Part shown: in pieces, positions 1,995 to 53,070 of the stretch
How positions within the stretch are numbered: position 1 is the stretch's first letter
How the letters are laid out: each line of letters begins with the position of its first letter
DNA from: Clostridiales bacterium
Lineage (GTDB): Bacteria > Bacillota > Clostridia > Christensenellales > JAISNN01
Direction: 5' to 3'
DNA: 64,000 bases
NCBI GenBank assembly: GCA_031275485.1
Contig: JAISOS010000033.1
Span: forward strand, 207 to 64,206
Notes under the pieces: generated by a model
What the model saw: only the letters and a program-made list of their open reading frames with translations
Told to the model about the DNA's origin: nothing
The model's database searches: none
Position numbers and translations under genes: made by a program

Positions 1995-2720
1995 CTACAC
2001 GCAGAATTTGTGACTGCCGATAGACAGCCGCACCTCGCGGCTGAAAATCCATTGGCTCGTCGCCGTGCGCGGATTATAATAATAGGTACAGCCGTACGTC
2101 GGGTCCCAGCCGTTCAGCGCGTCTTTCGCGGCGTTATACGCGCTTTGGTTTGGCGTAAGATTTATCTGGCCGTCGTGCACTGCGGTAAACGCCCACGGCT
2201 GATATATCACGCCGGGTATCGTATTCGGAAACTGGGAGCTTTTAACGCGGTTCAAAACAACGGCGGCGACGGCGACCTGACCCGTATAAGGCTCGCCGCG
2301 CGCCTCCGCGTAGACGCATTTCGCGAGAATGTCCAAGTCGGAGGATTTATATCCGCTCGCGGACGAACCCGACAGCGTAAGCCCCATAGCCGCGGCGGTT
2401 TGCGCTCCGACTATACCGTCCGCCGCCAGCTTGTTTTGACGCTGAAACGACTTGACCGCCGCGGCGGTTTGCGCTCCGTAAATGCCGTCCACCGCGCCGC
2501 CGTAATACCCCCAATTTTTCAGCTTTTTCTGCACCGCTTTGACGTCCTCGCCGCGGTTGCCCTGTCTCAGCGCCGCCGCCTCCGCGACCTCGCCGTACTC
2601 GCCCGAGCCGCTCAAAAACGCCTGCGCTCGCGGAACGATTTCATCGTAAAAAACCAAAAAATATCCGACCGCAAGCATAATAACGCACGCCGCCGCAAAA
2701 AATTTCACACCTCTGCCCAT
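1995..2720 (-). CDS. sleB: spore cortex-lytic enzyme SleB
   Basis: N-terminal TM and PG-binding repeats (GYYGGAVDGIYGAQTAAAVKSFQ, LAADGIVGAQT). C-terminal cell-wall hydrolase motifs (AEARGEPYTGQVAVAAVVLNRV, YQPWAFT). AAGGAG SD 8 nt before the ATG. Confidence 0.85.
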   Translation of the reverse strand: MGRGVKFFAAACVIMLAVGYFLVFYDEIVPRAQAFLSGSGEYGEVAEAAALRQGNRGEDVKAVQKKLKNWGYYGGAVDGIYGAQTAAAVKSFQRQNKLAADGIVGAQTAAAMGLTLSGSSASGYKSSDLDILAKCVYAEARGEPYTGQVAVAAVVLNRVKSSQFPNTIPGVIYQPWAFTAVHDGQINLTPNQSAYNAAKDALNGWDPTYGCTYYYNPRTATSQWIFSREVRLSIGSHKFCV

Positions 2721-2824
2721 TGTTTTTCTCCTTTTTATTTTTTGGGGGTTCTAAATTTCCGTGATAAAAACGGGATACGGGCGGGGCAAAATCATCACGG
2801 ATTTTTAGAACTCCCTTATTTTTT

Positions 2825-2887
2825 AAATTATGCGGGGGAAACTTTTTTAAAAAAGGTCCCACTCCGCGCCTCTTTCCAAAAAACTTT
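2825..2887 (-). repeat. REP1 hairpin element
   Basis: aaattatgcgggggaaac..ccgcgcctctttccaaaaaacttt. TAATTT arm faces the sleB start (105 bp). Confidence 0.7.
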
Positions 2888-2940
2888 ACGCTGTATTTAT
2901 TATACAAAGTATAGCCGTTCCGCGCCGGTTTACACAATAC

Positions 2941-3091
2941 TACGCGCGGTTTTTGCGCGGTTCTATACCGTGTTTTTGCGCATGCTTTTATACGTTTTTA
3001 CACGTTTCCACGCTTGCGCTTTTACGTGTTTTTAAGCCGTTTTTACGGTATTTTTAACGCTTTTCCCGCGTTATTTTTTATGCCCTTCTTT
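2941..3091 (+). repeat. T-tract array
   Basis: Runs cgtgtttttgcg, acgtttttacacg, cgtgtttttaag, ccgtttttacgg, tatttttaacg spaced about 10-13 bp. Abuts the spoIIR stop. Confidence 0.65.
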
Positions 3092-3667
3092 CTAATTTGC
3101 GGAGTCGAAAAAGCCGGCGATTATTTCCAATATTTTCGAGCGGTATTTTACAAGCCCGCTACCGTCGTTTTCCGCCGGAATAAAGCAGAGCGGAGGAAAG
3201 GCTATGCACCACCAATTGTCGCCGCGCGCCTCGCCCAATTCCAAAATCAACGCGGTATAGACTCCTTTTTCTAAGACTATATCGCCGTATATGCGCGTGG
3301 GAAATTCTTCGTCCTTTATATTCGCCGCCGCTCCGTAGCCGCGCCCGTCGTTTTTCAAAATTCTATCGGCGAGAGCCGAAAGCTCTCCCAAACGCCCTTC
3401 CAAACGCTCCGCCGCAGCCGCAGCCGAACCGCATTCAGCGAGAACGGGCGTGAGATACGCGACCACTCCGTCGCGCACGGCGTACTTTGCGCCCTGGTCT
3501 TCCGCCGAATTGCTGTTGGCGCGTATATGAATCCGCAAATATTGGGTCACGGGCTTATCCCCCGCTTCCGAATAATCCTCAAAAAACGCGAGCGCGTTGA
3601 AAACCAAAACGGCGGCAAGCGCAATTCCCGCAACGACGACCGCCGTTATGTATCCCTTCTTTTTCAT
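3092..3667 (-). CDS. spoIIR: stage II sporulation protein R
   Basis: LRIHIRANSNSAEDQ..VRD and NWWCIAFPPLC motifs, with an N-terminal TM. Start placed at ATG 3667 (AAGGAG SD). The longer ORF to 3751 reads through a REP1 copy. Confidence 0.8.
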   Translation of the reverse strand: MKKKGYITAVVVAGIALAAVLVFNALAFFEDYSEAGDKPVTQYLRIHIRANSNSAEDQGAKYAVRDGVVAYLTPVLAECGSAAAAAERLEGRLGELSALADRILKNDGRGYGAAANIKDEEFPTRIYGDIVLEKGVYTALILELGEARGDNWWCIAFPPLCFIPAENDGSGLVKYRSKILEIIAGFFDSAN

Positions 3668-3691
3668 AATAAGCTCCTTTTTTGTTTTTTT

Positions 3692-3759
3692 GAATTTACG
3701 CGTAGGAAATCTTTTTGCGAACAAAGAGCTTTCCCGCGCGCCTCTTTCCAAAAACTTCG
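3692..3759 (-). repeat. REP1 hairpin element
   Basis: gaatttacgcgtaggaaatc..cccgcgcgcctctttccaaaaacttcg. TAATTT arm faces the spoIIR start (25 bp). Confidence 0.7.
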
Positions 3760-4024
3760 ATAATGAATATATCTATATAAGCCAATTGAAAAGACATAAA
3801 TCCTTATTCGCGGTATGATTATTGCCGCAAAAAAAAAAATTATACAGGCGCGAAAAATTATGTTTCTTTAAACGTCCGTTAAAAAAATAAAATCACAATT
3901 TAAAATAAAGCGCGGCAAATAAAAAAAGCCTCCTTTAAAAAAAAGAAAGGCAACCGCGAGGCTATCGTAAATCCGTTCTTGGTAAACGGATTTAACAAAT
4001 CCGCGCCTAAATGTATGACGCAGG

Positions 4025-4088
4025 AATTTTTTGAGAAAAAGGCGCGGGGGGAAAGCCCTTCGTTCGCAAAAGGTTTCCCCGCATATTT
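4025..4088 (+). repeat. REP1 hairpin element
   Basis: aattttttgagaaaaaggcgcggggggaaagccc..aaaaggtttccccgcatattt. TAATTT arm faces the adhE stop (21 bp). Confidence 0.7.
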
Positions 4089-4108
4089 CCAAAGAAAATC
4101 CCCTCAAA

Positions 4109-6715
4109 TTATCCTTTTCCCTCAAACGCCTTTATATACATATTTTTTATTTCGGAAAACAACGGGTAACGCGGATTCGCGCCCGTGCATTGATCGTCGA
4201 ACGCCTGTTCGGTCATTTCGTCGAGTCTCGCGTAAAATTCCTCAGCATTCACGCCGTATTCTTTGATAGTTTTTTTAATTCCGACTTTTTCTTTCAGGAC
4301 GTCTATCGCGGCGATCAGGTTTTCGAGCTTTTCCTTGTCGGTCTTGCCTCCGATGCCCAGATAATCGGCTATTTCGGCGTATCTCGCGAGAGTGTTCGGA
4401 TAGGCGTATTGCGGAAAGGTTCCCATTTTCGGCGGTCTTTCGTCGGCGTTGAAGCGCAGAACCTCGTCTATCATTAGCGCGTTGGCGATTCCGTGCGGGA
4501 GATGAAAGAAAGAGCCTAATTTGTGCGCCATAGAGTGGCACACGCCGAGAAAGGCGTTCGCGAAAGCCATTCCCGCCATCGTCGCCGCGTGCGCGGTTTT
4601 TTCTCGTGCGAGAGGAGCGTCCGCGCCGTTCTCGTATGCGGACGGAAGATAGTCGAAAATAAGCTTCAGACTTCTAAGCGCGAGGCTGTCCGTAAAGTCC
4701 GTAGCGAGCATGGACGCGTATGCCTCCAAGGCGTGCGTCAGAGCGTCGACGCCCGACGCGCTTGTCAGACTCTTCGGCGCGTTCATCATCATATCCGCGT
4801 CGATAACCGCCATATCCGGCATCAATTCGTAGTCTGCGATAGGATATTTCACGCCGCTTTTCCCGTCCGTAATGACCGCGAAGGGCGTAACCTCGCTACC
4901 CGTCCCCGCCGTGGTCGGCACGGCGACGAAATATGCCTTTCCGCCCATTTTCGGAAAGGTATAGACGCGTTTTCTTATGTCGCCGAAACGCATCGCCATA
5001 TCCTCGAAATCCGCGTCGGGATGCTCGTATAGAACCCACATAATCTTGCCCGCGTCCATAGCCGAACCTCCGCCGACGGCGATTATGCAGTCCGGTTCGA
5101 ACGCGGTCATTCTCGCCGCTCCCTCTTTCGCGCAGTCGAGAGTAGGATCCGGCGCGACGTCGAAAAAGCAGTCGTGAACGATGCCCGCCCGGTCGAGTAT
5201 GTCCGTGACGGCTTTCGTATAGCCGTTTTTGTAGAGGAAATTGTCAGTAACTATAAAAACGCGTTTTTTATTCAATACGCTTTTCAATTCGTCGAGAGCG
5301 ACGGGCAGACAGCCCCTTTTGAAATAGACCTTTTCGGGTGTTCTGAACCAAAGCATATTCTCTTTCCTCTCCGCAACGGTTTTAAAATTTATAAGGTGTT
5401 TAACTCCGACGTTCTCCGAGACGCTGTTGCCTCCGGCATATCCGCAGCCAAGCGTCAAAGACGGCGCAAGCATAAAGTTATATATGTTGCCGATCCCGCC
5501 CTGTGCGGACGGCATATTGACCACGACGCGGCAGGTTCGCATACGAGCCGCAAACTTATCCAGCCGTTCGCGTCCCCTTGCCGTATCGATAAATATCGAG
5601 GCGGTATGCCCTAAGCCTCCCTCAAAAATCAACCTCTCCGCTTTACAGAGCGCATCGTCGAAATCTTTCGCCTTATACATAGCCAAAATCGGGGAGAGCT
5701 TTTCGTGCGCGAACTCCTCCTCCGGCTCGACGCTTTCGACCTCGCCTATCAGCAACTTCGTGTCCTCGGGCACGTTGAAACCCGCGAGATTCGCTATATC
5801 GCGCGCCGGTCGGCCGACGATTTTAGCGTTCAGCGCGCCGTTTATCAATATGACCTTTCTCAGTTTGCCGGTCTCCTCGTCCGTAAGGATTCGGCAACCG
5901 CGCGCCGCAAATTCCTTTTTTACCTTACCGTAAATTTTTTCTGGCACGATAACCGCCTGTTCGGACGCGCAAATCATACCGTAATCGAAAATCTTGGAAT
6001 GAATAATGGAGCTTACCGCCGTCAAAATATCCGCGCTCTCATCGATTAACGCGGGCACGTTGCCGGGTCCCACGCCTATCGCGGGCTTGCCGCTCGAGTA
6101 CGCCGCCTTGACCATACCCGGACCGCCCGTCGCCAAAATGACGTCCGCCTCCCTCATCGCCATATTCGTAAGCTCCAAAGACGGCGCGTCTATCCAGCCG
6201 ATAATCCCATCCGGCGCGCCCGCCCCGACGGCGGCGTCAAGGACGATTTTCGCCGCCTCTATCGTGCATTTCTTAGCCCGCGGATGCGGACTTATCACGA
6301 TGCCGTTCCGCGTTTTCAGAGCCAAAAGCGTCTTGAAAATCGCCGTCGAAGTCGGATTTGTCGTAGGTATGACGGCGGTGATAATACCCGCAGGCTCGGC
6401 TATTTTTTTGTAGCCGAACGAAGCGTTCTCCTCGACGACGCCGCACGTCTTAACGTTCTTGTATGCGTTGTAGATATACTCCGCCGCGTAATGATTTTTC
6501 ACAACCTTATCCTCCGCAAGCCCCATTCCAGTCTCGGCGACAGCCGCCTTCGCAAGCGGAATCCTCGCCTTCACCGCCGCCTCCGCAGCGGCTAAAAATA
6601 TCTTGTCCGTCTTTTCCTGCGTGAATTCCGCGAAGAGCCGTTGCGCCGTCCTCACCCTCTCGAAAACCTCTAATAACGCCTCCGGACTGTCCGTAATCCG
6701 TATATTTCCGTTCAT
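4109..6715 (-). CDS. adhE: bifunctional acetaldehyde-CoA/alcohol dehydrogenase
   Basis: About 868 aa. N-terminal ALDH domain (VIPTTNPTSTAIFK) and C-terminal Fe-ADH domain (GGGSAMDAGK, HxxxH region). ATG 6715 has a GAGG SD. The GTG at 6721 is less likely. Confidence 0.95.
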   Translation of the reverse strand: MNGNIRITDSPEALLEVFERVRTAQRLFAEFTQEKTDKIFLAAAEAAVKARIPLAKAAVAETGMGLAEDKVVKNHYAAEYIYNAYKNVKTCGVVEENASFGYKKIAEPAGIITAVIPTTNPTSTAIFKTLLALKTRNGIVISPHPRAKKCTIEAAKIVLDAAVGAGAPDGIIGWIDAPSLELTNMAMREADVILATGGPGMVKAAYSSGKPAIGVGPGNVPALIDESADILTAVSSIIHSKIFDYGMICASEQAVIVPEKIYGKVKKEFAARGCRILTDEETGKLRKVILINGALNAKIVGRPARDIANLAGFNVPEDTKLLIGEVESVEPEEEFAHEKLSPILAMYKAKDFDDALCKAERLIFEGGLGHTASIFIDTARGRERLDKFAARMRTCRVVVNMPSAQGGIGNIYNFMLAPSLTLGCGYAGGNSVSENVGVKHLINFKTVAERKENMLWFRTPEKVYFKRGCLPVALDELKSVLNKKRVFIVTDNFLYKNGYTKAVTDILDRAGIVHDCFFDVAPDPTLDCAKEGAARMTAFEPDCIIAVGGGSAMDAGKIMWVLYEHPDADFEDMAMRFGDIRKRVYTFPKMGGKAYFVAVPTTAGTGSEVTPFAVITDGKSGVKYPIADYELMPDMAVIDADMMMNAPKSLTSASGVDALTHALEAYASMLATDFTDSLALRSLKLIFDYLPSAYENGADAPLAREKTAHAATMAGMAFANAFLGVCHSMAHKLGSFFHLPHGIANALMIDEVLRFNADERPPKMGTFPQYAYPNTLARYAEIADYLGIGGKTDKEKLENLIAAIDVLKEKVGIKKTIKEYGVNAEEFYARLDEMTEQAFDDQCTGANPRYPLFSEIKNMYIKAFEGKG

Positions 6716-6749
6716 AAACACCTCGTATACATTTTTAAAAAAATAAAGA

Positions 6750-6767
6750 TTGATAAAATTTTAACAC
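6750..6767. promoter_or_regulatory. Rex-box-like operator (proximal)
   Basis: TTGATAAAATTTTAACAC versus the clostridial Rex consensus TTGTTAANNNNTTAACAA (12/14 defined positions). Lies 35 bp upstream of the adhE ATG. Confidence 0.5.
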
Positions 6768-6813
6768 AATCTCGAAAAAAACGCAAGCAAAAAAGCGGCG
6801 AATTACAAAAATA

Positions 6814-6831
6814 TTGATAAAATTTTAACGA
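6814..6831. promoter_or_regulatory. Rex-box-like operator (distal)
   Basis: TTGATAAAATTTTAACGA (12/14 defined positions). Same 16-mer core as the proximal site, 64 bp away. Confidence 0.5.
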
Positions 6832-6861
6832 ATTTTTACGAATGGGAATAATTTTTTAAAA

Positions 6862-6926
6862 AAAATATGATGGGGAAGCCTTTTGTTCACAAAAGGCTTC
6901 CCCATCACCCCTTTCCAAAAAACCTT
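6862..6926 (-). repeat. REP1 hairpin element
   Basis: Perfect 16-bp stem gatggggaagcctttt/aaaaggcttccccatc with compensatory changes relative to the consensus. TAATTT arm faces the adhE start (147 bp). Confidence 0.75.
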
Positions 6927-7164
6927 AACGTTTCTTACGGTTCCGTTCAAGCGGAACGATACGGACAGGTTCTTTGCTAAACCCGACTAAGCGTTGTCGC
7001 GACGTTTTTTTACTAAACTTCCATAAGCGTTGAGCAGGCGCTTTTTTAGGAAACATCTTTGTAAAAAAAACTTTTACGCGGCAATTACAATTCATAACGA
7101 TTATAACGCACAAAAAAAATTAACCGCAACGCCCTTATTTGAAAATAAAATTAAAAAAAGCGGA

Positions 7165-7228
7165 GGTCTTTTGAAAAGGGGCGCGGGGGAAAACCTTTTC
7201 TCCCAGAAAAGGCTTCCCCCGCGTTAAG
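7165..7228 (+). repeat. REP1 hairpin element
   Basis: ggtcttttgaaaaggggcgcgggggaaaacc..ggcttcccccgcgttaag. TAATTT arm faces the pnp stop (12 bp). Confidence 0.75.
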
Positions 7229-7239
7229 CCTTAACAAAA

Positions 7240-9327: not shown

Positions 9328-9404
9328 TCTTAATTTCCTCCCGCTCCGCCCAAACTACCCGGTTCGAAGCTTTTTTTATTTTTTATTTTTTTGTATTTTT
9401 TGTT

Positions 9405-9430
9405 TGCGCGTCCCTTTCTAAAAAACTTTA
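9405..9430 (-). repeat. REP1 fragment (GGAAAGG arm only)
   Basis: gcgcgtccctttctaaaaaacttt without the hairpin. Lies upstream of the pnp start in the usual orientation. Confidence 0.4.
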
Positions 9431-10175: not shown

Positions 10176-10889
10176 TTACTTCCTGAGCTTCAGCTCCGCC
10201 AAGATTGCCCTGTAACGCTCAATATCTTTGACCTTCAAATATTTCAAAAGGCTACGTCTCGCGCCGACCATTTTTAAAAGTCCGCGTCTGCTGTGATTGT
10301 CCTTTTTATGCACGGAAAGATGCTCGTTGAGCTTGGCAATCCGTTGCGTCAAAAGCGCGATTTGAATCTCGGGCGAACCCGTGTCGCCCTCGTGTCTCGC
10401 GAACCTCTCGATAACGGCCGTCTTTTTGTTTTCCTTTCTTACGCTTTCGGCGACGACCTCGTCGGCGACGATATTTTCTTCCTTGACGGCGGCTTCGACG
10501 CGTCCCGTCGTTCCGGCGCTCTCTTCCGTCCCGTCGTTTTCCTCCGCTTTCGTCTGTACGTCCGTTCCGCACCCGACTTCCGTTCCCGCAGCGCCGTCTC
10601 CTTCCTCCGCTTTTGCGGCAAGCTTACTTTTAACGACTTTCGTCCGCGCGGCAACTTCGGTATTCTCCTCCGCTTTTCCCGCGCCTCCGCCGCTTGCTTC
10701 GATCTTCACGGTCGTTTCGTCCGTCGTTTCCGTTTGCGTTGCGGTTTCGTTTTTTGCCGCTTCCCCTGGCTCTTCCGCCCCGCCGATTTCCTCCGCTTTT
10801 ACTGCGGCGCCGTCGTTCGTTTCAGCTTTTGCGACCGTTTCGTCCTTCGTTTCCGCCTGCGCGGCGGCTTCGTTGTTTAACTTGTCCAT
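10176..10889 (-). CDS. rpsO: 30S ribosomal protein S15 with long N-terminal low-complexity extension
   Basis: The C-terminal ~88 aa are canonical S15 ([31 protein letters not shown]). ATG 10889 has an AAGGAGG SD. No ATG, GTG or TTG occurs near the canonical S15 start. Confidence 0.75.
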
Positions 10890-11055
10890 AATATTTTTAT
10901 GCCTCCTTAATTTTGGGACACGGCATGCAAATTTTCGCCGCCGTTATTTGCCTTTGCAGCGTTTCCGCGTCTATCAGGAGTAAACTCGCGGAACATCGCA
11001 AAAGGTACGTATATAAGAATACCACATTTAAAAAAAATAGTAAAGCGTTTTCAGC

Positions 11056-11564
11056 TTAAGTAGCGGACAAACGGACGGCTAAATAAAAAAAAGCGGAATA
11101 CGACCCGTTAAGCCCGTTTACCGTTCCGCAAGACTCGCTTTTCCGCATCCCGTAAAGTTTTTTTATCCGATTATAAGAGTCGGCTTTGCCCATACCAAAA
11201 GCCCTGCCGGTTTTTCCCTTTTACCGCTCCGCAAAGCTCACTTTTCCGAATCCCGCGAAGTTTTTTTTATCCAATTGTAAACGTTGGCTTTGCTCATATT
11301 TAAAACTCTGCCGATTTTGCGACCGCTCGCGCCCGCGCAAAACATTTCAATCGCGCTTTGCCGCACTTCGTCGGCGTAAGCGTGCGCCATCGGCTCGGGC
11401 GTGTACCTTCTGCCGCATATCGCGCATTTGCACGCCTGAGTTCCCGAACGGTTCCTCCCTCTGTTTTGTTGCCCCTCCGCCGCCCCGCATCTCGGGCAGA
11501 TTTTAATTAACTCATCCATATCCGAACATTATGGCGTAACGCCGTCCGTTTGTCCGCTCCTTAA
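11056..11564 (-). mobile_element. miniature IS1-family-like element (InsA-type ORF only)
   Basis: Terminal inverted repeats ttaagtagcggacaaacggacggc (11056-11079) and gccgtccgtttgtccgctccttaa (11541-11564) match at 23/24. They enclose only a 93-aa Zn-finger/HTH ORF and no DDE transposase. Confidence 0.6.
11238..11519 (-). CDS. IS1 InsA-like zinc-finger/HTH protein
   Basis: CPRCG..x..CKCAICGRRYT zinc ribbon followed by an HTH (GRKIGRVLNMSKANVYNWIKK). Confidence 0.6.
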   Translation of the reverse strand: MDELIKICPRCGAAEGQQNRGRNRSGTQACKCAICGRRYTPEPMAHAYADEVRQSAIEMFCAGASGRKIGRVLNMSKANVYNWIKKTSRDSEK

Positions 11565-11632
11565 TTTATTAATATTTTAATACGGTTTTTTAATTTAAAT
11601 TACGGTTAAAAAGCGCGTTTCTTTGAACGCGG

Positions 11633-14580: not shown

Positions 14581-14629
14581 AACTTTTTTTGAAAAGCGGC
14601 GCGAGCGAGAACCTTTTTTTAATAAATTT
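14581..14629 (+). repeat. REP1, truncated copy
   Basis: aactttttttgaaaagcggcgcgagcgagaaccttttttt..aaattt. Faces the start of the next CDS (35 bp). Confidence 0.4.
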
Positions 14630-14663
14630 CAAATAAAACGAAAAATGAGGACGGAATTGCCCT

Positions 14664-15803: not shown

Positions 15804-16080
15804 CAATGCGGAGAATAACGCTTTTCCGTCCGGTTTAAACCGATAGAATCATACCGGAAAAGACGGATTCGCGCTTTCGGTTATCCCGCTCGGCGGCTTT
15901 ATATACTAGTTATGAATCGGAACCTCGTAAGACAAGCGTCATCCTTTCCGTCGTAAAACTTGTCTCTTCCGTTTAACGCAACTCTTTACGGCGGCCGTAC
16001 ATTCCGAAAGTTTTACGGCGGAAACTAAACGCCTATCCTCGCTCGATTCCGTTTATAAACGGTTGCAAAATATAACGTCG

Positions 16081-16144
16081 GAGTTTTTGGGAAGAAGGCG
16101 CGGGAGAAAGCCTTTTGTTTAAAAAAGGGTTCCCGCGTAAATTT
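16081..16144 (+). repeat. REP1 hairpin element
   Basis: gagtttttgggaagaaggcgcgggagaaagcc..gggttcccgcgtaaattt. Lies 25 bp before the ATG at 16169. Confidence 0.7.
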
Positions 16145-16168
16145 AAAAAAGGAAAAAAGGAACCGCTT

Positions 16169-17344: not shown

Positions 17345-17360
17345 AAATTTTTATTTTTTA

Positions 17361-17416
17361 TTTTGAAAAAGGGGAGCCTTTTGTAAACAAAAGGCTCCCC
17401 TTTTTCAAAAAACTTT
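17361..17416 (-). repeat. REP1 hairpin element (near-perfect palindrome)
   Basis: tttgaaaaaggggagcctttt-gtaaac-aaaaggctcccctttttcaaa. Lies 17 bp after the stop of the preceding CDS. Confidence 0.7.
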
Positions 17417-17582
17417 ACCTTTTTATTATTACGCAAAGTAACGCCCCTCGCAAGCGCTCCTTTTGTAAAAACGGACAAAGTTACTCTTTCAAAAAATATC
17501 GCCGCATCCTTTCCCATATTTCCCGCAAATACTAAGCCGCGGCGCTCGGCTAAAACGTAATATAACCGTGAAAATCCTTAAT

Positions 17583-17626
17583 AGAAAAGGCGCGGGGAAA
17601 ATCTTTTCTTGCGAAACGCGTAAATT
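17583..17626 (+). repeat. REP1, truncated copy
   Basis: agaaaaggcgcggggaaaatcttttcttgcgaaacgcgtaaatt. Faces the cdaA stop (49 bp). Confidence 0.45.
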
Positions 17627-20841: not shown

Positions 20842-21108
20842 TTTTCTTTACGGACTTCCCTTCCGTTTTTAAAGTTTTTTATATTGTTTAAATTGTTTTT
20901 CAATGTTTTTTATATCGTTTTTCAGCGTTTTCCGCGCCGTTTTTTCGCTCTTTCTAATAGCGTTTTTCATATCGCTTTTTCACGCTTTTAATACCGTTTT
21001 TCGCATTATTTTTTTATCGCTTTCCGCGTCGTTTAATCAGCTTTTTCATATCGTTTCACGCCGTTTTTTGCCGTTTTTATTCTGCTTCTCAGATTTTTTA
21101 CGCCGTTT
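20842..21108 (+). repeat. T-tract array
   Basis: 16 runs of T5-T7 on the plus strand and no A5+ run. Units such as tcgtttttcag, ccgttttttcg, gcgtttttcat, cgctttttcac are spaced about 10-12 bp. Confidence 0.75.
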
Positions 21109-22598: not shown

Positions 22599-22667
22599 GA
22601 AGTTTTTTTTGGGGGAAAGAGGCGCCGGGGGAAAGCCTTTCGTTCACAAAAGGTTTCCCGCGCATAT
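22599..22667 (+). repeat. REP1 hairpin element
   Basis: gaagttttttttgggggaaagaggcgccgggggaaagcc..aaaaggtttcccgcgcatat. Lies 23 bp from the kinase stop. Confidence 0.7.
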
Positions 22668-22689
22668 CGTTATGCAAAATAAAAAAAAA

Positions 22690-24577: not shown

Positions 24578-24633
24578 ATTTACCTCTTATTTTTTTGAGA
24601 TTACGCGAAGAGGGGGATTCTCTTATTTTTTTC

Positions 24634-24699
24634 AAAATTACGCGGCGGAAACCTTTTGTAAACAAAAGGTTCTCCCCCGCGCCCATTTCCAAAAACTCC
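24634..24699 (-). repeat. REP1 hairpin element
   Basis: aaaattacgcggcggaaacctttt-gtaaac-aaaaggttctcccccgcgcccatttccaaaaactcc. Faces the regulator start (57 bp). An extra TAATC-arm fragment lies at 24596-24632. Confidence 0.7.
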
Positions 24700-24878
24700 G
24701 GCGTATTTTTACGACCCTATTTAAACCGTATAATAAGGATATTATATCACGGCAAACGAAAATTTGCAATAAAAATCGGAATGAAATGTCGGAACGCCTA
24801 TATACAATAGACGAAAACGCCGGATTTTCGGGGCTTGCGAGACATTTTTTGCGTTTATCCGTTTATATATAAATGATA

Positions 24879-24943
24879 AAGTTTTTTGGAAAGGGGCGCG
24901 GGGAAAAATCTTTCGTATCAATAAGGTTTACGCCGCGTAATTT
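24879..24943 (+). repeat. REP1 hairpin element
   Basis: aagttttttggaaaggggcgcggggaaaaatc..ggtttacgccgcgtaattt. Faces the DUF421 gene start (83 bp). Confidence 0.65.
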
Positions 24944-25025
24944 ATAAATAATAAAAAATTAAAAATTATAAAAATCTCTCTCTATTTTACCGTATAATCG
25001 AAAAAACCTTCCGCATAATATTAAT

Positions 25026-31218: not shown

Positions 31219-31620
31219 CAGGTAAGCCCCTATTAATTAGTAAAATTTCTCCGTATCGCTTTTCCCGCGCGATTGCGTATCCGTATTTTAATTTCAATTA
31301 TTATATCATTAAAATTTGCCGATGTCAATTCTATAAGCGTATATCTTTCGACCGTCGGGATTACCCGTTACGATACATTCGCCGATATACCGCTCTTGCC
31401 GTTTCTTAGCGGGAATTTGCGCATGTTAACCGCGCGTTCTTTGATAAGCGTTTCGCCGATAGTTATTTATAGTATGCGTCCTGCCGCCTTATTTCATATA
31501 TTATTAGCGGAGACTTTAAAACAATGCATCTTAAAACCCTTTGAAAATCTTTCGGAAAGAGAACGGCGCCGAAAAATACGGTCTCCTCATCCGTTCCGTT
31601 TCATATAATAAAAACACCGA

Positions 31621-31682
31621 AAGTCTTATAGGCGCGGGGAACGTTCTTCTTTCTTTAAAGAAAATACCCCCGCATAATCTTT
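31621..31682 (+). repeat. REP1 hairpin element (diverged stem)
   Basis: aagtcttataggcgcggggaacg..aaaatacccccgcataatcttt. Lies 29 bp before the ATG at 31711. Confidence 0.6.
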
Positions 31683-31710
31683 AAAAAAGAAAAAAGGAAT
31701 TCTTAAGTTT

Positions 31711-32895: not shown

Positions 32896-32915
32896 TTTTT
32901 TTGGGGGGGATTTTA

Positions 32916-32980
32916 AAAAAATTACGCGGGTGGAAACCTCTTTTGAAAAAAAGGCTTTTTTCTCGCGCCCCTTTCCAAAG
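32916..32980 (-). repeat. REP1 hairpin element
   Basis: aaaaattacgcgggtggaaacc..ctcgcgcccctttccaaag. Lies 21 bp after the M14 stop. Confidence 0.65.
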
Positions 32981-33355
32981 GGCAAAGGTCTCCTTGTTTT
33001 AGTAATTACGTATGAACCGAGAGATGCGGATAAATTTTGCAAAAGACAAAGAAAACGCCGCGGCGGGAGTTTACGGCAAAGCGCGCGTCGAATAATCTCG
33101 CTTTAAAAATGAAACGCCGCGCGAACGGCGGGGAATTGTTAAAATCTCTGAAAAATAAACCGCGCATCAAATTTATGACGCTTTATGAATATCAAACCGG
33201 CGCAAAACCGTTGCGCCGTCATTAAAAAAAACGACGTTTAATTTGAAAATTTAACGAGTATAAAAAACAAGATCTATAAAATTTTTTAGAAAGAACACAT
33301 GGGAAAAGACACCCTGCCGACAGCAAAACGACGCCGCTTTGATAATAAAAGCGTT

Positions 33356-33425
33356 GAAGTTTTTTCGGAAAGGAGCGCGGGAGAAAAACCTTTTATTCGC
33401 AAAAGGTCACCCCCGCGTAAATTTT
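33356..33425 (+). repeat. REP1 hairpin element
   Basis: gaagttttttcggaaaggagcgcgggagaaaaacc..aaaaggtcacccccgcgtaaatttt. Lies 19 bp before the tadA ATG. Confidence 0.75.
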
Positions 33426-33443
33426 ATAAAAAAAGAGGAAAAA

Positions 33444-33890: not shown

Positions 33891-33913
33891 ATTTTTACAT
33901 AAAAAATTTTTAT

Positions 33914-33981
33914 AAAAATTACACGGGGAAAATCTTTTACGCGTAAAAGGTTTTCCCCGCGCCCCTTTCTCAAAAAACATT
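33914..33981 (-). repeat. REP1 hairpin element
   Basis: aaaaattacacggggaaaatctttt-acgcgt-aaaaggttttccccgcgcccctttctcaaaaaacatt. Lies 24 bp after the tadA stop. Confidence 0.75.
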
Positions 33982-34114: not shown

Positions 34115-34262
34115 GATGTATCTTTTTTCTACCGAAAACTTGAGTAATGCTCCTTCCGCAGTTCCTTGCCGCCTCGTCCGATAAATTCACAAAGGTTTGC
34201 CCCCGCATAAATTTTCAAATCGGCTAATATAATAATATTATTATCGGCGGAGAAATTTATTT

Positions 34263-37170: not shown

Positions 37171-37236
37171 GAAGTTTTTGGGAAAGGAGCGCTTGGGAAA
37201 CCTTTTTTTACAGCAAGGTTTCTCTTACATAATCTT
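37171..37236 (+). repeat. REP1 hairpin element (diverged)
   Basis: gaagtttttgggaaaggagcgcttgggaaacc..aaggtttctcttacataatctt. Lies 12 bp from the gcvPA stop. Confidence 0.6.
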
Positions 37237-37247
37237 AAATCAAATAT

Positions 37248-38582: not shown

Positions 38583-38602
38583 ATTTCCTCCCGTCCTTTT
38601 TT

Positions 38603-38666
38603 ATTTGATTTGCGCGCGGTAAACCTTTTTAAAAAAGTTTACCGCGCGCCTTTTGCCAAAAACTTC
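38603..38666 (-). repeat. REP1 hairpin element
   Basis: Stem gcgcgcggtaaac/gtttaccgcgcgc is fully paired with a different sequence from the consensus. Lies 21 bp upstream of the gcvPA ATG. Confidence 0.7.
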
Positions 38667-39040
38667 AAGCAATTTATGCCGTCACAATACAAAGTTCTTT
38701 TTTCAAAAACTTTGTGTAATTTACTCCGTATACAAAGTTTTTTTCTTAAAAAACCTTTGGCGGTATATCGGATTATTCGGAATTACCTCTTCTTTTAGCA
38801 CCGATACGGTGTTTCCCAAAAAACTTTCGACGGTATGCCTTCACCACGTAAAGCCGATTGAAGTTTGTATTCACGGTAGAAAAGGCGGGGCTTGCGAAAG
38901 ATTTTTCAGCCGATAAGGCCTTGTTTTTTGAAATTACGGCAAGTAAGCCCCGCTTGGTCGGGCATGAACGAACCGTTAAAGACCGCCGTCCACAACTATG
39001 CGTATCGGCGCTTTAAGCCTATTCCGGACGATAAATACGT

Positions 39041-39110
39041 CGGGTTTTTTTGAAAAGAGGCGCGGGTGGAAAACCCTTGCGTTAACAAAAGATTTTCCCC
39101 GCGCAACCCT
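39041..39110 (+). repeat. REP1 hairpin element
   Basis: cgggtttttttgaaaagaggcgcgggtggaaaacc..gattttccccgcgcaaccct. Lies 14 bp from the gcvH stop. Confidence 0.7.
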
Positions 39111-39123
39111 CAAAAAAGTAAAA

Positions 39124-39486: not shown

Positions 39487-39573
39487 TTTTCCCTCCGGAT
39501 AACCGTATTTTTATAGCGGTTCTAAATTGGAACCGCGCGAATATAACCGCCAATTTTTTACCGCAATGAGCTA

Positions 39574-39680
39574 AGAGGTTCTCCCACATATTCGGACAAT
39601 ACGAAAAACGGTTCTTTTTACCTCTTACGGCGAAAAAAGACCTCGCAAGCCTTTCGCGATTCCGATTCGTAACGGTTATA
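39574..39680 (+). repeat. R2 dispersed repeat (~107 bp)
   Basis: aagaggttctcccacatattcggacaatacgaaaaacggttcttttta..cttacggcgaaaaaag..cgcgattccgattcgtaacggttata. Collinear with 62260-62366. Confidence 0.6.
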
Positions 39681-39817: not shown

Positions 39818-40885
39818 TTATCTCTTATAAAACGGCATTCCGACGATCTCGGCGGCAAGCGTTCGGCCCCGCGCCTCCACCGTCAAGCCGCCGCCAAGCT
39901 CCGCGCCGATTGAGAGCCGCGCCATAGCGACAGGATAGCCCAAAGTTGGCGACATTGTGCCGGAAGTAACGTATCCTATATTTTTGCCGTCCCGATATAC
40001 CGGATATCCCTCGCGGGCGACGCCTCTGTCCGTAATTTTCAAACCGACACGCCGAAACCCGGGCGGCGAGGATACGAGCGCGTCCCGCCCGACGAATTCC
40101 CTCTTTCCGAGCTTTATATACGCGTTAAGCCCTATCTCCGTCGCAAGCGTCCCTTCGTTCATTTCGTGTCCGTAGAGCGGCATCGCGCTCTCAAGTCTCA
40201 GCGTGTCGCGCGCGCCGAGCCCCGCCAAAACCGCGCCGTACTTTCCGGACACCTCCAAAATTCTTTCCAAAAGCCCGATGGCAACGGAGTTGGGCGCGTA
40301 GATTTCAAAGCCGTCCTCGCCCGTATAGCCCGTCCGCGATATTACGGCGCGTTCTCCCGAAAATTCCGAAAAAACGAAAGTATAAAAGCCTTTCGGCAAT
40401 TCCGAAAAAAGCCCGCCCAAAAGAGCCTCCGCGCGCGGCCCTTGCACGGCTATCATAGAAATTTCGTCCGACACATCCCTCAGAACGCTCCCGTATTTTA
40501 GACGCGATTTTATAAGCTCGCGGTCTTTGTCCGTATTCGACGCGTTAACGACGATATAATATTTGCGATCGTCCGCCTTGTATACCAAAAGATCGTCCGC
40601 AACGCCGCCGTCTTCGTTGCACATAAGCGTGTATCTGACCTTGTTTTTCGGCATATCGGCGAATTCGTTTGTGAAAAGATTGCCGACGTCCCGCTCAGCC
40701 TCCGCGCCCTCTAAAATAAACTCGCCCATATGCGAAACGTCGAATATTCCGGCGGTCTCGCGAACCGCCCTGTGTTCGCTCAGAATGCCGCCGCGAAATT
40801 GCACGGGCATATAAAAGCCGCCGAATTCCACAAATTTTCCGCCTTCGCCGAGTAGCTTTTCATACAAAACCGTCTTTTTTATCAT
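39818..40885 (-). CDS. gcvT: glycine cleavage aminomethyltransferase
   Basis: 355 aa with FGGFYMPVQF, AGIFDVSHMGE and SRTGYTGEDGFEI motifs. Confidence 0.9.
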   Translation of the reverse strand: MIKKTVLYEKLLGEGGKFVEFGGFYMPVQFRGGILSEHRAVRETAGIFDVSHMGEFILEGAEAERDVGNLFTNEFADMPKNKVRYTLMCNEDGGVADDLLVYKADDRKYYIVVNASNTDKDRELIKSRLKYGSVLRDVSDEISMIAVQGPRAEALLGGLFSELPKGFYTFVFSEFSGERAVISRTGYTGEDGFEIYAPNSVAIGLLERILEVSGKYGAVLAGLGARDTLRLESAMPLYGHEMNEGTLATEIGLNAYIKLGKREFVGRDALVSSPPGFRRVGLKITDRGVAREGYPVYRDGKNIGYVTSGTMSPTLGYPVAMARLSIGAELGGGLTVEARGRTLAAEIVGMPFYKR

Positions 40886-40909
40886 AATTTTCCTTTTTAG
40901 AGAGTGAAA

Positions 40910-40975
40910 GTATTATGCGGGGGAAATCTTTCGTGAATAAAAAATTTTCGTCCGCTCCCCTTTCTCAAAAACTCC
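40910..40975 (-). repeat. REP1 hairpin element (diverged)
   Basis: gtattatgcgggggaaatc..cgtccgctcccctttctcaaaaactcc. Lies 25 bp upstream of the gcvT ATG. Confidence 0.6.
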
Positions 40976-41050
40976 GACGTTTTACAGACTCGTCTAAACC
41001 GGACGCCGCAGCCGAATTTTTTTCAATTAATATTACTATAACATTCCGAT

Positions 41051-42221: not shown

Positions 42222-42290
42222 AAAGTTTTTCGGAAGAGGACGCGGATGAAACCTTTTGCGAACAAAAGGTCTCATCTCCCGCATAATTTT
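42222..42290 (+). repeat. REP1 hairpin element
   Basis: aaagtttttcggaagaggacgcggatgaaacctttt-gcgaac-aaaaggtctcatctcccgcataatttt. Lies 18 bp from the pyrF stop. Confidence 0.65.
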
Positions 42291-42307
42291 CAAAAAGAAA
42301 AACTCTT

Positions 42308-44672: not shown

Positions 44673-45059
44673 AATTGTTTCCTTTATTTTTTCATATTGA
44701 TTTCACTATTTTTTATATCGTTTCCGCTTATTTTTTTACGCCTTCCATTACATAAACCGTCGTTTTTCAGTATTTTTTACCCTATACAAGCCGTATAAAA
44801 CCTTCTTTTTCAGTGTTTTTTCGCGATATAAAATCTTTCGTTTTACGCGCCTTTTGCAAAGCCGAAACTCCTTGTTTTCCGTATTTTTTACATAGCTTGA
44901 ATCATAATTTTTCGCGCTTTTTGCGGTATGAAAAACGCGGCTTTTTTGCGCTTTTGCGACACATAAACCATTGTTTTTTCACTTTTTGCGGCATAAATCC
45001 GTCGTTTTTCTTACGTTTTTGCGCGGCGGCGCGCCGTACCTCCTCTTTCGCGCTCCCGC
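44673..45059 (+). repeat. T-tract array (pyrB-pyrC spacer)
   Basis: 387-bp spacer with many T5-T7 runs (cgtcgtttttcag, cttctttttcagtgttttttcgcg, cggcttttttgcgcttttgcg, ccattgttttttcactttttgcgg). Confidence 0.65.
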
Positions 45060-48814: not shown

Positions 48815-49657
48815 CGCCGTTACCGCCGCCGCATTGTTTGTGTGGACGCCTCTAAATATCAACCCTTTTGTCGGAATTTTTGAGAAGCGCCTTATATTTT
48901 AATATATGTAATAAAAATTCTTAATGTTCTATACCGATATGTCAAATTTTTTCATTTGTTCCGCCCGCTTAAGCGCGTTGAAACCTTAATTTTTTCCTTC
49001 CGTTTGTTCCGTGCGCAAAATTTATTTCGCCTATTCCGCATACCGAAACTTTATGCGCCTTTCGTCATATACTGTTTAAGGAACGCATTGTTCTCCTACG
49101 GAAGATTACAATACGTATTCATAAATGAAAACGCGCGGCTTTTACGGATCTTTCATCGTTTTTTTCTTGTTGCCGGTTCAGACGGTAATAGGAAAAACGC
49201 CTTGAGCGCCGCAAAAGTCCCCCTCAAATCGGACGTTTTCATCCGTGAATTCGGGTTATAAAAAAACGGTCAATTTTTTCACGGCGGTTAGGCTCGGTAT
49301 GATTTTTCCTTTTATAAAAAACGATGAAATCACGCTGCGTTTGAGCCGCGAAACCAAAACGGGTACGCCCGATAACCGGGTAACGGGGAGACTTGCCGCC
49401 GACATACCTATGCAGTTTGGATTCTTACGCGAATTATTTGACAAGGAGCGGCAACCGAATTATACGCATACCCTTTCAGCGGGGCGCGAAAGCGCGGCGA
49501 ACGTATTCCTTTTAGCGGAGAATCTAACGAAAACCGGCAGCCGGATTATTCGCGTCGAACCCCGCGCCCTATCGGCGAGCAATCCGCGTACGGTATAAAT
49601 AACGACGGTAATACGTACGGTACGGCGGTATATGATAACGCGAGAGGAGGATCCGGC

Positions 49658-49930
49658 ATGCGCGCTCCGTTTAAAGAAACGTTTAACCCGTTCCAGCAAT
49701 ACGGCTATTCGGCGGCGGAATCCTCGGCGCGGCGCGGCTCCGGGCGCGAAAATGTCGGCTGTTTGCCGCCGAATCCGGTAAGGAGAGGCTTTTGCGGACG
49801 GCGTTACCCCGAGTCTGCCGATACGAATGTGTGTACGCCTTTCGGCTGTAAAAATTATACCGCTCCGCCCGACTTCTCGTTTCTCGAATTCGTAGACCCG
49901 GCCTCGCATATCTCGCCCCGCAACCGCTGA
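49658..49930 (+). CDS. hypothetical 90-aa protein (4 Cys, P/R/G-rich)
   Basis: ATG preceded by GAGAGGAGG at optimal spacing. No family recognised. Confidence 0.4.
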   Translation: MRAPFKETFNPFQQYGYSAAESSARRGSGRENVGCLPPNPVRRGFCGRRYPESADTNVCTPFGCKNYTAPPDFSFLEFVDPASHISPRNR

Positions 49931-49997
49931 AAACGCGAGCGACGGAAAGCTTACTTTTCTTAAAAAATCTCTTTCGGGTACGATAAATAAAATTATC

Positions 49998-50171
49998 CTA
50001 TTTTTTCCTTATCCCGCAGAACTCGGCGGCGGCACAGGTATCGCAACCACAATCACCGCAGTTGCGCCTTTCGCGTTCGTTTCCGAAGGGTTCGCGCCAT
50101 TTTATCAAAATGCCGAAAATTTTAAACGCGCAAAGCGAAACCGATACGATTACGAAATCTATAAACCTCAT
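49998..50171 (-). CDS. FeoB-associated Cys-rich membrane protein
   Basis: 57 aa with one TM (FIDFVIVSVSLCAFKIFGILI) and a C-terminal CGDCGCDTC cluster. Immediately downstream of feoB. GGAGA SD before ATG 50171. Confidence 0.55.
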   Translation of the reverse strand: MRFIDFVIVSVSLCAFKIFGILIKWREPFGNERERRNCGDCGCDTCAAAEFCGIRKK

Positions 50172-50334
50172 TTTTTCTCCCATTTTTTTAAAATACGGAT
50201 GTTACGGGTTTTTGTAATAAAAATGATATCCGGCGCAGGCTTATCCGCCGCGAAAATTCATAACCCTATAATTTAAAAAAGGGGAACTCTCCTTCTAAAA
50301 ACCTCTCTTTTCGCCCGACTTTTTTATAGCCGGC

Positions 50335-52557: not shown

Positions 52558-52620
52558 ATAAAATTATATGACGCCGAAAAAAATTTACGACGCGTTTTTT
52601 AGAGGAATAAACGTTTTTTT

Positions 52621-52678
52621 AAATTTACGAGGGGGAGGATACAAAATGCCCGCCCGCGCTCCTTTCTAAAAAACTTCC
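52621..52678 (-). repeat. REP1 hairpin element (diverged)
   Basis: aaatttacgagggggagg..cccgcccgcgctcctttctaaaaaacttcc. Lies 64 bp upstream of the feoB ATG. Confidence 0.55.
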
Positions 52679-52990: not shown

Positions 52991-53054
52991 CAGTTTTTTG
53001 GAAAGGGGTGCGGGGGAAACCTTTTGTTCACAAAATGTTTCCCCCGCTTAATTT
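52991..53054 (+). repeat. REP1 hairpin element
   Basis: cagttttttggaaaggggtgcgggggaaacctttt-gttcac-aaaatgtttcccccgcttaattt. Lies 17 bp from the citrate synthase stop. Confidence 0.75.
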
Positions 53055-53070
53055 TTTTTAAACAAAAAAA

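Follow-up and report, generated by a model that had tools for sequence, protein, structure and literature searches.

REP1, a dispersed hairpin repeat with unlike arms, is oriented toward coding sequence ends in a Clostridia contig and in other genomes

The DNA considered here is a 64-kb stretch (hereafter the window) of a 64.5-kb metagenome contig, JAISOS010000033.1, from a Clostridiales bacterium; the same stretch is present in the Logan assembly of run SRR14710916. Pfam matches on 40 open reading frames (ORFs), among them YpeB, SleB and SpoIIR, identify the source as a spore-forming Firmicute, and the genes recognised include the housekeeping genes adhE, pnp, rpsO, smc, ftsY, feoB and citrate synthase, glycosidases, and the gcvT-H-PA-PB and pyrR-B-C-F clusters. 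Gene calls combined Pfam matches (50 ORFs scanned, 40 accepted as genes) with a codon-usage caller and with start codons refined by Shine-Dalgarno (SD) strength. The G+C content is 49.5%, 27% of the window is non-coding, and the closest GcvPA relatives, 66-70% identical, belong to metagenome-assembled genomes (MAGs) named 'Clostridiales bacterium'. Dispersed between these genes is a hairpin repeat, REP1, of which an nhmmer search of the 64 kb (E<0.01, profile from 15 clear copies) called 28 non-overlapping copies, about one per 2.3 kb and none inside a called coding sequence (CDS). The two arms of REP1 are unlike and one of them faces a CDS end in almost every copy. We tentatively propose that REP1 is a REP-like hairpin repeat lying in 5' and 3' untranslated regions (UTRs), its orientation being kept by selection on these unlike arms.

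Anatomy of the repeat

In what we call the + orientation, the consensus reads ..TAAAAnnCGnnGAAG TTTTTT GGAAAGGGG C ( GCGGGGGAAACCTTTTG TTCA CAAAAGGTTTCCCCCGC ) GTAATTT W AAAAAA, with the stem-loop in parentheses. The left side thus consists of an AT-rich flank (..TAAAAnnCGnnGAAG), a U-run (T5-7) and a purine motif, GGAAAGGGG, here called the G arm, and the right side of an AU-rich arm, GTAATTT, and an A-run present in almost every copy, whether at a start or at a stop. The stem has 18 pairs (GCGGGGGAAACCTTTTG/CAAAAGGTTTCCCCCGC) closed by a loop of 4-5 nt, and the conserved unit spans some 70-100 bp. Canonical pairs make up 86% of the cells of the stem, and compensatory double changes occur at 16 of the 18 pairs (23 copies). 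The folding energy of single copies is -28 to -41 kcal/mol and their z-scores run from -1.6 to -5.3 (below -4 in four of six folds); RNAfold also predicts a weak outer stem joining the U-run with the A-run. A covariance model run with filters off recovers the copies and, where both strands match, places the called strand clearly ahead, for example with 88.7 versus 48.4 bits at 62124-62194; the bits quoted below are scores of this model. The loop is flipped relative to the arms in three copies (6856-6926, 42222-42295 and 60541-60613; GTGAAC/GCGAAC versus GTTCAC/GTTCGC), as if the palindrome had its centre inverted, or had received it by conversion from a copy of the opposite orientation.

A back-to-back pair with its spacer was considered as one large miniature inverted-repeat transposable element (MITE) with REP1 units for terminal repeats. 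This candidate was rejected: the masked spacers share no internal sequence in an all-against-all BLAST. Copies that bracket one gene or share a spacer resemble one another no more closely than random pairs do. Together, the unrelated spacers and the partners no more alike than random argue that each copy is its own event and not half of a larger transposon. Rfam returned no match at the gathering score for the window and 18 foreign loci, and at E up to 1 gave only chance microRNA-type matches on one palindrome; a full-text literature search with four element strings retrieved only an unrelated paper on dog gene expression. From these sequence searches, REP1 appears undescribed in Rfam and in the literature matched by sequence text.

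Orientation toward coding sequence ends

The TAATTT side is the one nearer to a CDS end in 27 of the 28 window copies (binomial p = 2.2e-7). Obtained with our own copy and gene calls, this figure bears out a preliminary description of the window, according to which the arm pointed to the nearest CDS boundary in 28 of 29 copies; one half or degenerate copy, for instance 34186-34218, accounts for the extra count. The six single genes said there to lie in inverted brackets (adhE, the patB-like gene, the M14 peptidase gene, tadA, gcvPA and citrate synthase), the six back-to-back intergenic pairs and the sole exception to polarity, at 60541-60613, were all reproduced, and the distances claimed were borne out as well, with 10-25 nt at ten of the eleven stops and 17-36 nt at nine starts. 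Stop-facing copies (n=11) lie 10, 12, 14, 15, 16, 18, 19, 19, 23, 25 and 48 nt from the stop. The start-facing copies (16 of the 27) fall into nine at 17-36 nt, with a real SD recognisable between the AU-rich arm and the ATG, and seven at 57-187 nt. Such short distances to CDS ends are in keeping with UTRs. On the G-arm side the next CDS is 78-749 nt away, and long non-homologous spacer DNA is found on this side only, as expected if the element marks the edge of a transcribed unit. Where genes run in the same direction over one stretch, the two orientations are equally frequent. A 5' and a 3' copy are found together at one gene slightly more often than by chance (odds ratio 4.6, one-sided p = 0.04), and back-to-back pairs are 70-380 nt apart.

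At the left end of the window, a copy at 2819-2887 (-; 57.6 bits) turns its TAATTT arm toward the sleB start, 104 nt away. The 5' copy of spoIIR at 3687-3759 (-; 71.5 bits) has its arm 25 nt from the ATG, the order after the arm being A-run, AAGGAG and ATG, and stands back to back with the 3' copy of adhE at 4024-4095 (+; arm 19 nt from the stop; 73.7 bits). The bracket of adhE is completed upstream by the copy at 6856-6926 (-; 146 nt from the start; loop flipped to GTGAAC; 84.4 bits). A seventh bracketed gene, pnp, has a 3' copy at 7163-7235 (+; 10 nt from the stop; 71.8 bits) and depends for its other side on a partial copy upstream of the start, 9389-9429 (-; 18.6 bits), in which the U-run and G arm are present without the hairpin. 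The patB-like aminotransferase gene lies between a 5' copy at 16080-16149 (+; 25 nt from the ATG; 72.5 bits) and a 3' copy of a short-arm variant at 17354-17416 (-; 15 nt from the stop; 49.5 bits), and degenerate copies occur at 14581-14645 (+; 17 nt from a metC-like start; 19.6 bits) and 17577-17626 (+; toward the cdaA stop, 48 nt). A 3' copy follows a histidine kinase gene at 22604-22676 (+; 19 nt from the stop; 66.8 bits). The copy in the leader of a response-regulator gene, 24629-24700 (-; 57 nt from the ATG; 83.8 bits), has a promoter-like site, TTGCAA-17-TATAAT, about 45 nt upstream of its G-arm side, and stands back to back with a copy directed toward the yetF start at 24878-24949 (+; 82 nt; 72.1 bits).

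The M14 peptidase gene is framed by a 5' copy with a degenerate G arm at 31620-31686 (+; 30 nt from the ATG; 27.8 bits) and a 3' copy at 32913-32986 (-; 23 nt from the stop; 54.1 bits). At tadA, the 5' copy, 33357-33429 (+; 20 nt from the ATG; 75.6 bits), has GGAAAGGAG as its G arm and is directly preceded by a promoter-like site at 33317-33346; the 3' copy is at 33910-33980 (-; 25 nt from the stop; 78.0 bits). Some 45 nt upstream of a gene starting at 34263 there is a half copy, 34186-34218 (+), which retains the 3' stem half and a TAAATT arm; the promoter scan scored it as TTCACA-16-TAAATT. Within the gcv operon, gcvPA has a 3' copy at 37171-37241 (+; 12 nt from the stop; 46.4 bits) and a 5' copy at 38601-38667 (-; 24 nt from the ATG; 54.8 bits), gcvH a 3' copy at 39042-39115 (+; 14 nt from the stop; 68.6 bits) and gcvT a 5' copy at 40904-40975 (-; 24 nt from the ATG; 70.4 bits). 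Many Firmicute gcvT operons carry a glycine riboswitch; the gcvT leader of the window holds the REP1 copy, and no glycine riboswitch was found by Rfam (E up to 1) upstream of gcvT (39818-41050) or elsewhere in the window.

Further on, pyrF has a 3' copy with a flipped loop at 42222-42295 (+; 18 nt from the stop; 54.4 bits), and a copy with a short hairpin at 52616-52677 (-; 64 nt; 37.8 bits) is turned toward the feoB start. Citrate synthase has a 3' copy at 52990-53060 (+; 16 nt from the stop; 85.3 bits) and, ahead of its start, two elements: a deletion derivative at 54511-54553 (-; 57 nt; 22.1 bits), with both arms present and the stem reduced to GGGGGC-TTT-CCCCCGC, and a copy without the TAATTT arm at 54640-54712 (-; 187 nt upstream; 56.1 bits). 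Between the two REP1 copies of the feoB-gltA spacer there is also a 54-nt near-palindrome, 52803-52855, which is 85% self-complementary and gives a weak covariance-model match at 52784-52848. The top-scoring copy is the 5' copy of the fucosidase gene at 62124-62194 (-; 32 nt from the ATG; 88.7 bits). The exception to polarity, 60541-60613 (-; loop flipped; 62.8 bits), has the fucosidase stop 50 nt away on its G-arm side, and on its TAATTT side the start of the GH38 gene at a distance of 513 nt.

Orientation was not near 50/50 elsewhere. In the sister lineage represented by locus L113 (GcvPA 66% identical), all five copies of a diverged variant, AAAAGTTTTTTGGAAAGG-TT-CGGAAAACGC..GGTTTTCCG-ACAATTC, obey the polarity according to the database's own gene calls. 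For other, unrelated genomes we used a criterion free of any gene model, namely an ORF of at least 100 codons beginning or ending within 60 nt of the copy: a CDS end was found only on the non-G side in 21 cases, only on the G side in none, on both sides in 15 and on neither in 4 (p = 1e-6). The 21 one-sided copies comprise 13 at stops, 3 at starts and 5 that are ambiguous. Polarity is a general property of the repeat family, beyond this contig.

Spread of the family and known repeats

More than 108 stretches in species-representative genomes match the pattern of G arm and stem base, and about half of these are bona fide copies. The carriers include numerous Clostridia MAGs of gut and rumen origin (one termite-gut MAG accounts for at least 14 loci), as well as Clostridia bacterium PG1894_211, which is apparently cultured, and the isolate Solidesulfovibrio alcoholivorans DSM 5433; some matches lie in contigs binned as Verrucomicrobiota, Lentisphaerae and Thermoguttaceae, these bins being unconfirmed. 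Metagenome contigs yielded 35 loci with further variants, none of them adding to the source genome, and among 2.9 million viral contigs eight pattern matches were obtained, none of which is a real copy. Conserved across lineages are AAAG-T5-6-G(G)AAAGGGG-CGC-GGGGGAAAC and the matching 3' stem strand. The non-G arm is lineage-specific, TAATTT being absent from the sister variant (CAATTC) and from the other genomes. The S. alcoholivorans copy forms the leader of dnaG and is common to a second Desulfovibrionaceae genome: a family member lies between mutS2 and dnaG in S. alcoholivorans (L020, 3375-3440) and in a related MAG (L083, 257-320), where the 24 nt that separate the hairpin from the dnaG ATG contain no SD; the G arm, upstream of the hairpin, is there the only sequence resembling one. 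In a Eubacteriales MAG (L099, 1788-2250) the elements form a head-to-tail tandem array of at least three units with a 156-nt period, an arrangement that does not occur in the window.

The gcv cluster was compared across relatives by the spacers, in nt, between its genes. It is free of REP1 in L112 (58 / 18 / 1), L158 (69 / 57 / 106), L110 (117 / 165 / 0) and L159, in which gcvH and gcvPA are 55 nt apart and gcvPA and gcvPB overlap; an unrelated gene of the DUF1016/YhcG family (2458-3609) lies there between gcvT and gcvH, and the operon is otherwise compact. L157 has spacers of 481 / 138 / 423 with no REP1 inside the cluster. L113 has spacers of 445 / 341 / 510, with REP1 between gcvPA and gcvPB and tandem repeats in the other two, and the window 331 / 541 / 280 with REP1 present. 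Given the compact, REP1-free clusters of relatives, the elements entered an ancestrally compact gcv operon in some lineages, and REP1 is a lineage-specific invader, not an ancestral regulatory site. Spacers were not alignable for an empty-site comparison, the nearest relatives being 66-70% identical in GcvPA.

Many spacers of the window measure 300-1500 nt, REP1-free ones included (e.g. 10446-11632, 48815-50334 and 54460-55314), and those of L113 are likewise long and packed with tandem repeats of 45-100 nt period; the two lineages seem to tolerate unusually bloated intergenic DNA. In the window, a tandem array with 44-nt and 132-nt periods occupies 56264-56591, between a cytidylate-kinase-like gene and the GH38 gene, its two 132-nt units being 89% identical, and T-rich short-period repeats of about 22 nt fill 20843-21047, between an M28 peptidase gene and holA, with a related stretch at 44677-44723. 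A second repeat, of about 110 nt and unrelated to REP1, is present in the gcvH-gcvT spacer (39573-39680) and in the fucosidase-SDR spacer (62260-62366) at 79% identity. The ORF of ribosomal protein S15, 10176-10889 (-), encodes 237 residues of which only 156-236 form the S15 domain; the 155 codons ahead of it have good codon usage and an ATG preceded by an SD, and represent either an N-terminal extension or a fused upstream gene.

The known repeats closest to REP1 are the REPs or tagged palindromic repeats, which lie mostly downstream of ORFs, often at under 20 bp from the stop, and for which transcription and an effect on mRNA stability are assumed (PMC3733652; PMC2817692). Like REP, BIME and REPIN elements, the GTAG and CGTC families and the SMAG repeats of Stenotrophomonas, REP1 is a high-copy extragenic hairpin with an unpaired, conserved and polar head; as with REP, BIME and REPIN elements, it often forms head-to-head pairs and lies close to ORF 3' ends (eleven window copies at 10-48 nt), its palindrome being imperfect. 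There are several differences: (i), the head of REP1 is a 17-20 nt U-run plus SD-like purine motif and not a GTAG or CGTC tetranucleotide, and the GTAA that follows the stem is confined to the window lineage and absent from the other genomes, so that no GT(A/G)G/CGTC head is present; (ii), the stem has 18 pairs and the unit 70-100 bp, as opposed to 20-40 bp for REP; (iii), REP1 pairs have unrelated spacers and stand 160-380 nt apart, unlike the compact doublets of REPINs and the regularly spaced clusters of BIMEs; (iv), many REP1 copies are at gene starts; (v), REP1 is hosted by Clostridia, a group that goes unmentioned in Di Nocera et al.; and (vi), a strict CDS-facing polarity is not described in PMC3733652 or PMC2817692. 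No gene for a REP-associated tyrosine transposase (RAYT) was seen within the 64-kb window, none of the 50 Pfam-scanned ORFs has a transposase domain, and no transposase is obvious in copy-rich foreign loci, where many of the 'ORFs' are translated repeats. We file REP1 under the REP/MITE kind and, on account of its head motif and its lack of the doublet architecture, outside the RAYT-REP family.

Bacterial MITEs (Correia/NEMIS, RUP, ERIC and Bcr1 in the account of PMC3733652) are small, co-transcribed, give stable RNA folds and alter the expression of neighbours, and REP1 resembles them in being a small non-coding multicopy element next to coding regions. MITEs are, however, defined by terminal inverted repeats and target-site duplications, whereas REP1 is a central palindrome with unlike arms: only the U-run and A-run (6 nt) are complementary, and no duplication is recognisable in aligned flanks. 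An integron attC site was also considered and rejected (GGGAAAC ... GTTTCCC in the stem versus RYYYAAC ... GTTRRRY, hence purines at the pyrimidine positions of attC; alternating orientations; and housekeeping genes such as adhE, pnp, gcv and gltA).

Possible roles at gene ends

The G arm resembles a ribosome binding site. Against a 16S 3' tail, CACCUCCUUUCU, assumed to be of the Firmicute type for all pairing energies, it averages -8.9 kcal/mol, as compared with -7.0 for the SD regions (20 nt upstream) of 40 genes and -2.9 for background 20-mers. This mean is within the top 4% of the background; ten arms reach -11.5 kcal/mol or lower, some copies read exactly GGAAAGGAG, and the opposite strand of the arm gives +0.2 kcal/mol. 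No ATG, GTG or TTG follows the arm in the consensus and the following stem strand has no start codon. In this the G arm is like the STAB-SD and polypurine 5' stabilisers of Bacillus (Agaisse and Lereclus 1996 and Hue et al. 1995, as cited in PMC5737220), which are strong, start-less, SD-like leader sequences complementary to the 16S 3' tail (GAAAGGAGG in Bacillus; GGAAAGGGG or GGAAAGGAG in REP1). The Bacillus stabilisers are features of single genes, whereas REP1 is a dispersed repeat with the motif fused to a long hairpin and its complement at 3' ends. The placement of the arm in a transcribed leader, for which promoter-like sites upstream of three 5' copies are no more than suggestive, and a gain in half-life through the 30S subunit are putative.

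Firmicute mRNAs are protected from RNase J1 by 5' hairpins and by start-less SD sequences (STAB-SD, polypurine stabilisers), and 3' hairpins block 3' exonucleases. We propose that REP1 is a dispersed non-coding hairpin of the REP/MITE kind that multiplied in this Clostridia lineage and settled against CDS ends, each copy being included, within the UTR, in the transcript of the gene beside it; REP1 is probably a mobile repeat that is now part of mRNA untranslated ends. Its polarity would follow from the unlike arms, with the U-run and GGAAAGGGG on one side and GTAATTT and the A-run on the other. A 5' copy would give a leader made of U-run, SD-like arm, 18-pair hairpin, AU-rich tract, real SD and AUG, and would so combine two Firmicute stabiliser types, a 5' hairpin and a start-less SD holding a 30S subunit. 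A 3' copy would give a trailer of stop, U-rich tract, hairpin, C-rich anti-SD-like arm and A-run, its hairpin standing in the way of 3' exonucleases. What most simply accounts for both gene ends is that the purine arm has to be on the outer, transcript-terminal side of the hairpin; this arm and its complement would always be found there, where they could pair as a 5'/3' panhandle within one mRNA or across the spacer in read-through RNA. A reversed 5' copy would set an anti-SD mimic beside the real ribosome binding site, and a reversed 3' copy a strong ribosome-binding decoy in the trailer; it is this misplacement that, in our proposal, lets selection keep the orientation. That the copies are transcribed, that they stabilise and that selection causes the polarity are three points we infer.

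Several observations point the same way. Promoter-like sites lie upstream of the G-arm side at the response-regulator gene, tadA and yetF, suggesting that these 5' copies would be leaders, and 5' copies tend to fold better as sense RNA than 3' copies (p = 0.084 in the window, p = 0.024 in other genomes), the 3' copies having no folding preference for either orientation. Complementary sequences on either side of a CDS have precedents in the long-range 5'/3' UTR interaction of B. subtilis hbs (PMC5737220) and in S. aureus icaR, where the 5' SD region is paired by a motif of the 3' UTR that is C-rich and anti-SD-like (PMC3868564). These cases differ from REP1 in being gene-specific and shown by mutation and compensation; the complementarity of REP1 copies is automatic from their inverted order, and the complement of the G arm, GCCCCUUUCC, resembles an anti-SD sequence. 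The preliminary description had suggested, among other roles, paired stabilisers of 5' and 3' mRNA ends. This suggestion is compatible with our data and is the one we prefer, in view of the start-less SD-like G arm, the upstream promoter-like sites and the co-occurrence of 5' and 3' copies.

A number of points weigh against the proposal. Partner copies at one gene do not co-evolve, their similarity being no greater than that of random pairs. In 3' copies, where it is antisense, the G arm is just as SD-like as in 5' copies, so its conservation is not explained by a 5' function alone. A wobble-pair test (G-U versus A-C, structure-based alignment) is flat (14:12 versus 9:12, p = 0.56), and RNA-level selection is therefore not established. 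The 16S tail used for the energies may not be the host's own, and both the transcription of the copies and the positions of transcript ends are putative. The weakest step is the selective cost of the unseen 3' orientation, which is asserted by argument; an insertion bias of mechanistic origin may be needed to account for ratios as extreme as 10:1 in the window and 21:0 elsewhere.

Such a bias is the serious rival, although on balance we consider it somewhat unlikely. Polarity would be built in when a selfish mobile element joins its AU-rich end to a strand-asymmetric target at CDS boundaries, for example an A-run, which is common on the sense strand before an SD and on the antisense strand after stops, and any RNA function would be incidental. 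The extreme ratios at 3' ends, where a selective cost is hard to name, are readily accommodated in this way, as are the A-run beyond the AU-rich arm at starts and stops alike, the lineage-specific right arms of an invader, as from within-genome amplification of a master copy, and a G arm equally conserved in both contexts, like a transposase recognition end. The conserved 17-20 nt arm 5' of the hairpin also resembles the left-end geometry of IS200/IS605-type elements (IS608), to which the arm-hairpin layout of REP1 can be likened. On the other hand, no transposase gene was seen in the window or was obvious in copy-rich loci, neither target-site duplications nor terminal inverted repeats were recognised, and the nearest relatives are too distant for an empty-site comparison. 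The A-run also accompanies copies far from a CDS (60541 and 24878), and so looks like part of the element rather than of the target, and the equal orientations among co-directional genes stand against the replication-strand bias of single-strand transposition.

Transcription punctuation is another role that the preliminary description had put forward. REP1 could be a polar terminator or insulator against polymerases coming from the long AT-rich spacers at both ends of the gene, or a Rho-loading module that ends the upstream transcript. Hairpin-plus-T-run sites are no commoner than in dinucleotide shuffles (43 vs 38, 44 vs 43 and 37 vs 39 in three 20-kb scans), so that canonical intrinsic terminators appear scarce in this organism and something else must define 3' ends; the stop-to-hairpin distance of 10-25 nt is typical of terminators, and the hairpin is followed by UAAUUU(U) when read toward the CDS. 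Only one of the 28 copies passes the hairpin-plus-T-run scan, however, that at 6856-6926, and it reads toward adhE, into the gene, and about as many U follow the stem in one orientation as in the other (4.35 versus 4.0 per 10 nt). An inward terminator 20-35 nt before the ATG would block its own gene unless a promoter lay inside the element, which is poorly supported. We thus reject REP1 as an intrinsic terminator. As for Rho, 3' copies in sense continue into GCCCCUUUCC, and this 18-nt arm is C-rich and G-poor (7 C versus 1.3 G), as Rho prefers; the C bias is confined to the arm and does not carry on through the following 60 nt. This is a short extent for a Rho-loading (rut) site and led us to reject an extended one. 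Punctuation in either form is in our view unlikely.

The third role suggested earlier, a portable promoter, is very improbable; the loop (TTGTTC/TTCACA) would be the -35 and TAATTT the -10, reading into the adjacent CDS. The consensus does have a TTCACA-16-TAnnnT geometry, promoter-like scoring favours the direction of the CDS over the opposite one, the sigma-70 scan picks out three elements or half elements (17360-17387, 22643-22670 and 34186-34213), and 17-36 nt from arm to ATG is a workable leader length. But the pair reaches at least 9 of 12 matches to the sigma-70 consensus in only 3 of 23 copies, 5' copies (mean score 6.2) do not surpass 3' copies (7.2), where transcription would run antisense into the gene, and the loop is variable and flipped in three copies. 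Polarity persists where TAATTT is absent, in the sister variant and the other genomes, and the clear canonical promoters of the window, at smc, HAD and pyrR, look quite different. On these grounds we rejected REP1 as a sigma-70 promoter.

Finally, REP1 may act as DNA, as a cruciform, triplex-prone or protein-binding mark of gene boundaries to which the asymmetric G arm gives direction; supercoil relief, binding of gyrase or a nucleoid protein and domain insulation are candidate roles. The flat wobble-pair test is what would be expected if neither RNA strand were favoured, conservation of the G arm does not depend on which strand is sense, a homopurine mirror repeat, GAAAGGGG-CGC-GGGGGAAA, lies beside the long perfect palindrome, and E. 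coli REPs, which bind gyrase and other proteins (PMC3733652), offer a precedent. We nevertheless judge this quite improbable: there is no candidate protein, and transcription-driven supercoiling is not mirror-symmetric about a gene, whereas the polarity is. An intramolecular triplex formed by the mirror repeat is itself unlikely, since the stem takes up its CGC centre in pairing, so that a third strand would have no loop by which to fold back, and the A-run lengths of arm and stem do not covary strictly.

What the orientation rule would mean

Elements of UTR ends, as we propose, are thus a plausible explanation of REP1, with orientation at insertion as its serious rival. A broader version of the proposal, which we regard as doubtful, would make REP1 one of a widespread and so far undescribed class of UTR modules in Clostridia and Desulfovibrionaceae, with a conserved purine arm shaped by complementarity to the universal 16S 3' end and single mRNAs sealed at both ends, one gene at a time: the 5' module would recruit 30S subunits beside the hairpin, and the 3' anti-SD mimic would pair to the 5' arm or tuck along the stem. 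The sequence handle AAAG-T5-6-GAAAGGGGCGCGGGGGAAAC could find thousands of cases in gut Clostridia, and PG1894_211, as an apparently cultured carrier, makes experiments possible.

If the orientation was set at insertion, the repeat may reflect an equally new transposition mechanism that senses CDS boundaries, and would be a mobile element recognising gene boundaries of a kind so far undescribed. If instead the rule is functional, REP1 would be a natural portable 'UTR cassette', a leader one way and a trailer the other, dense enough to rebuild operons into separately bounded genes, as the gcv spacers of 280-540 nt versus 1-58 nt in some relatives would illustrate; it would then bear on how Firmicutes with scarce terminators protect their mRNA ends and on a genome-wide use of start-less SD sequences.

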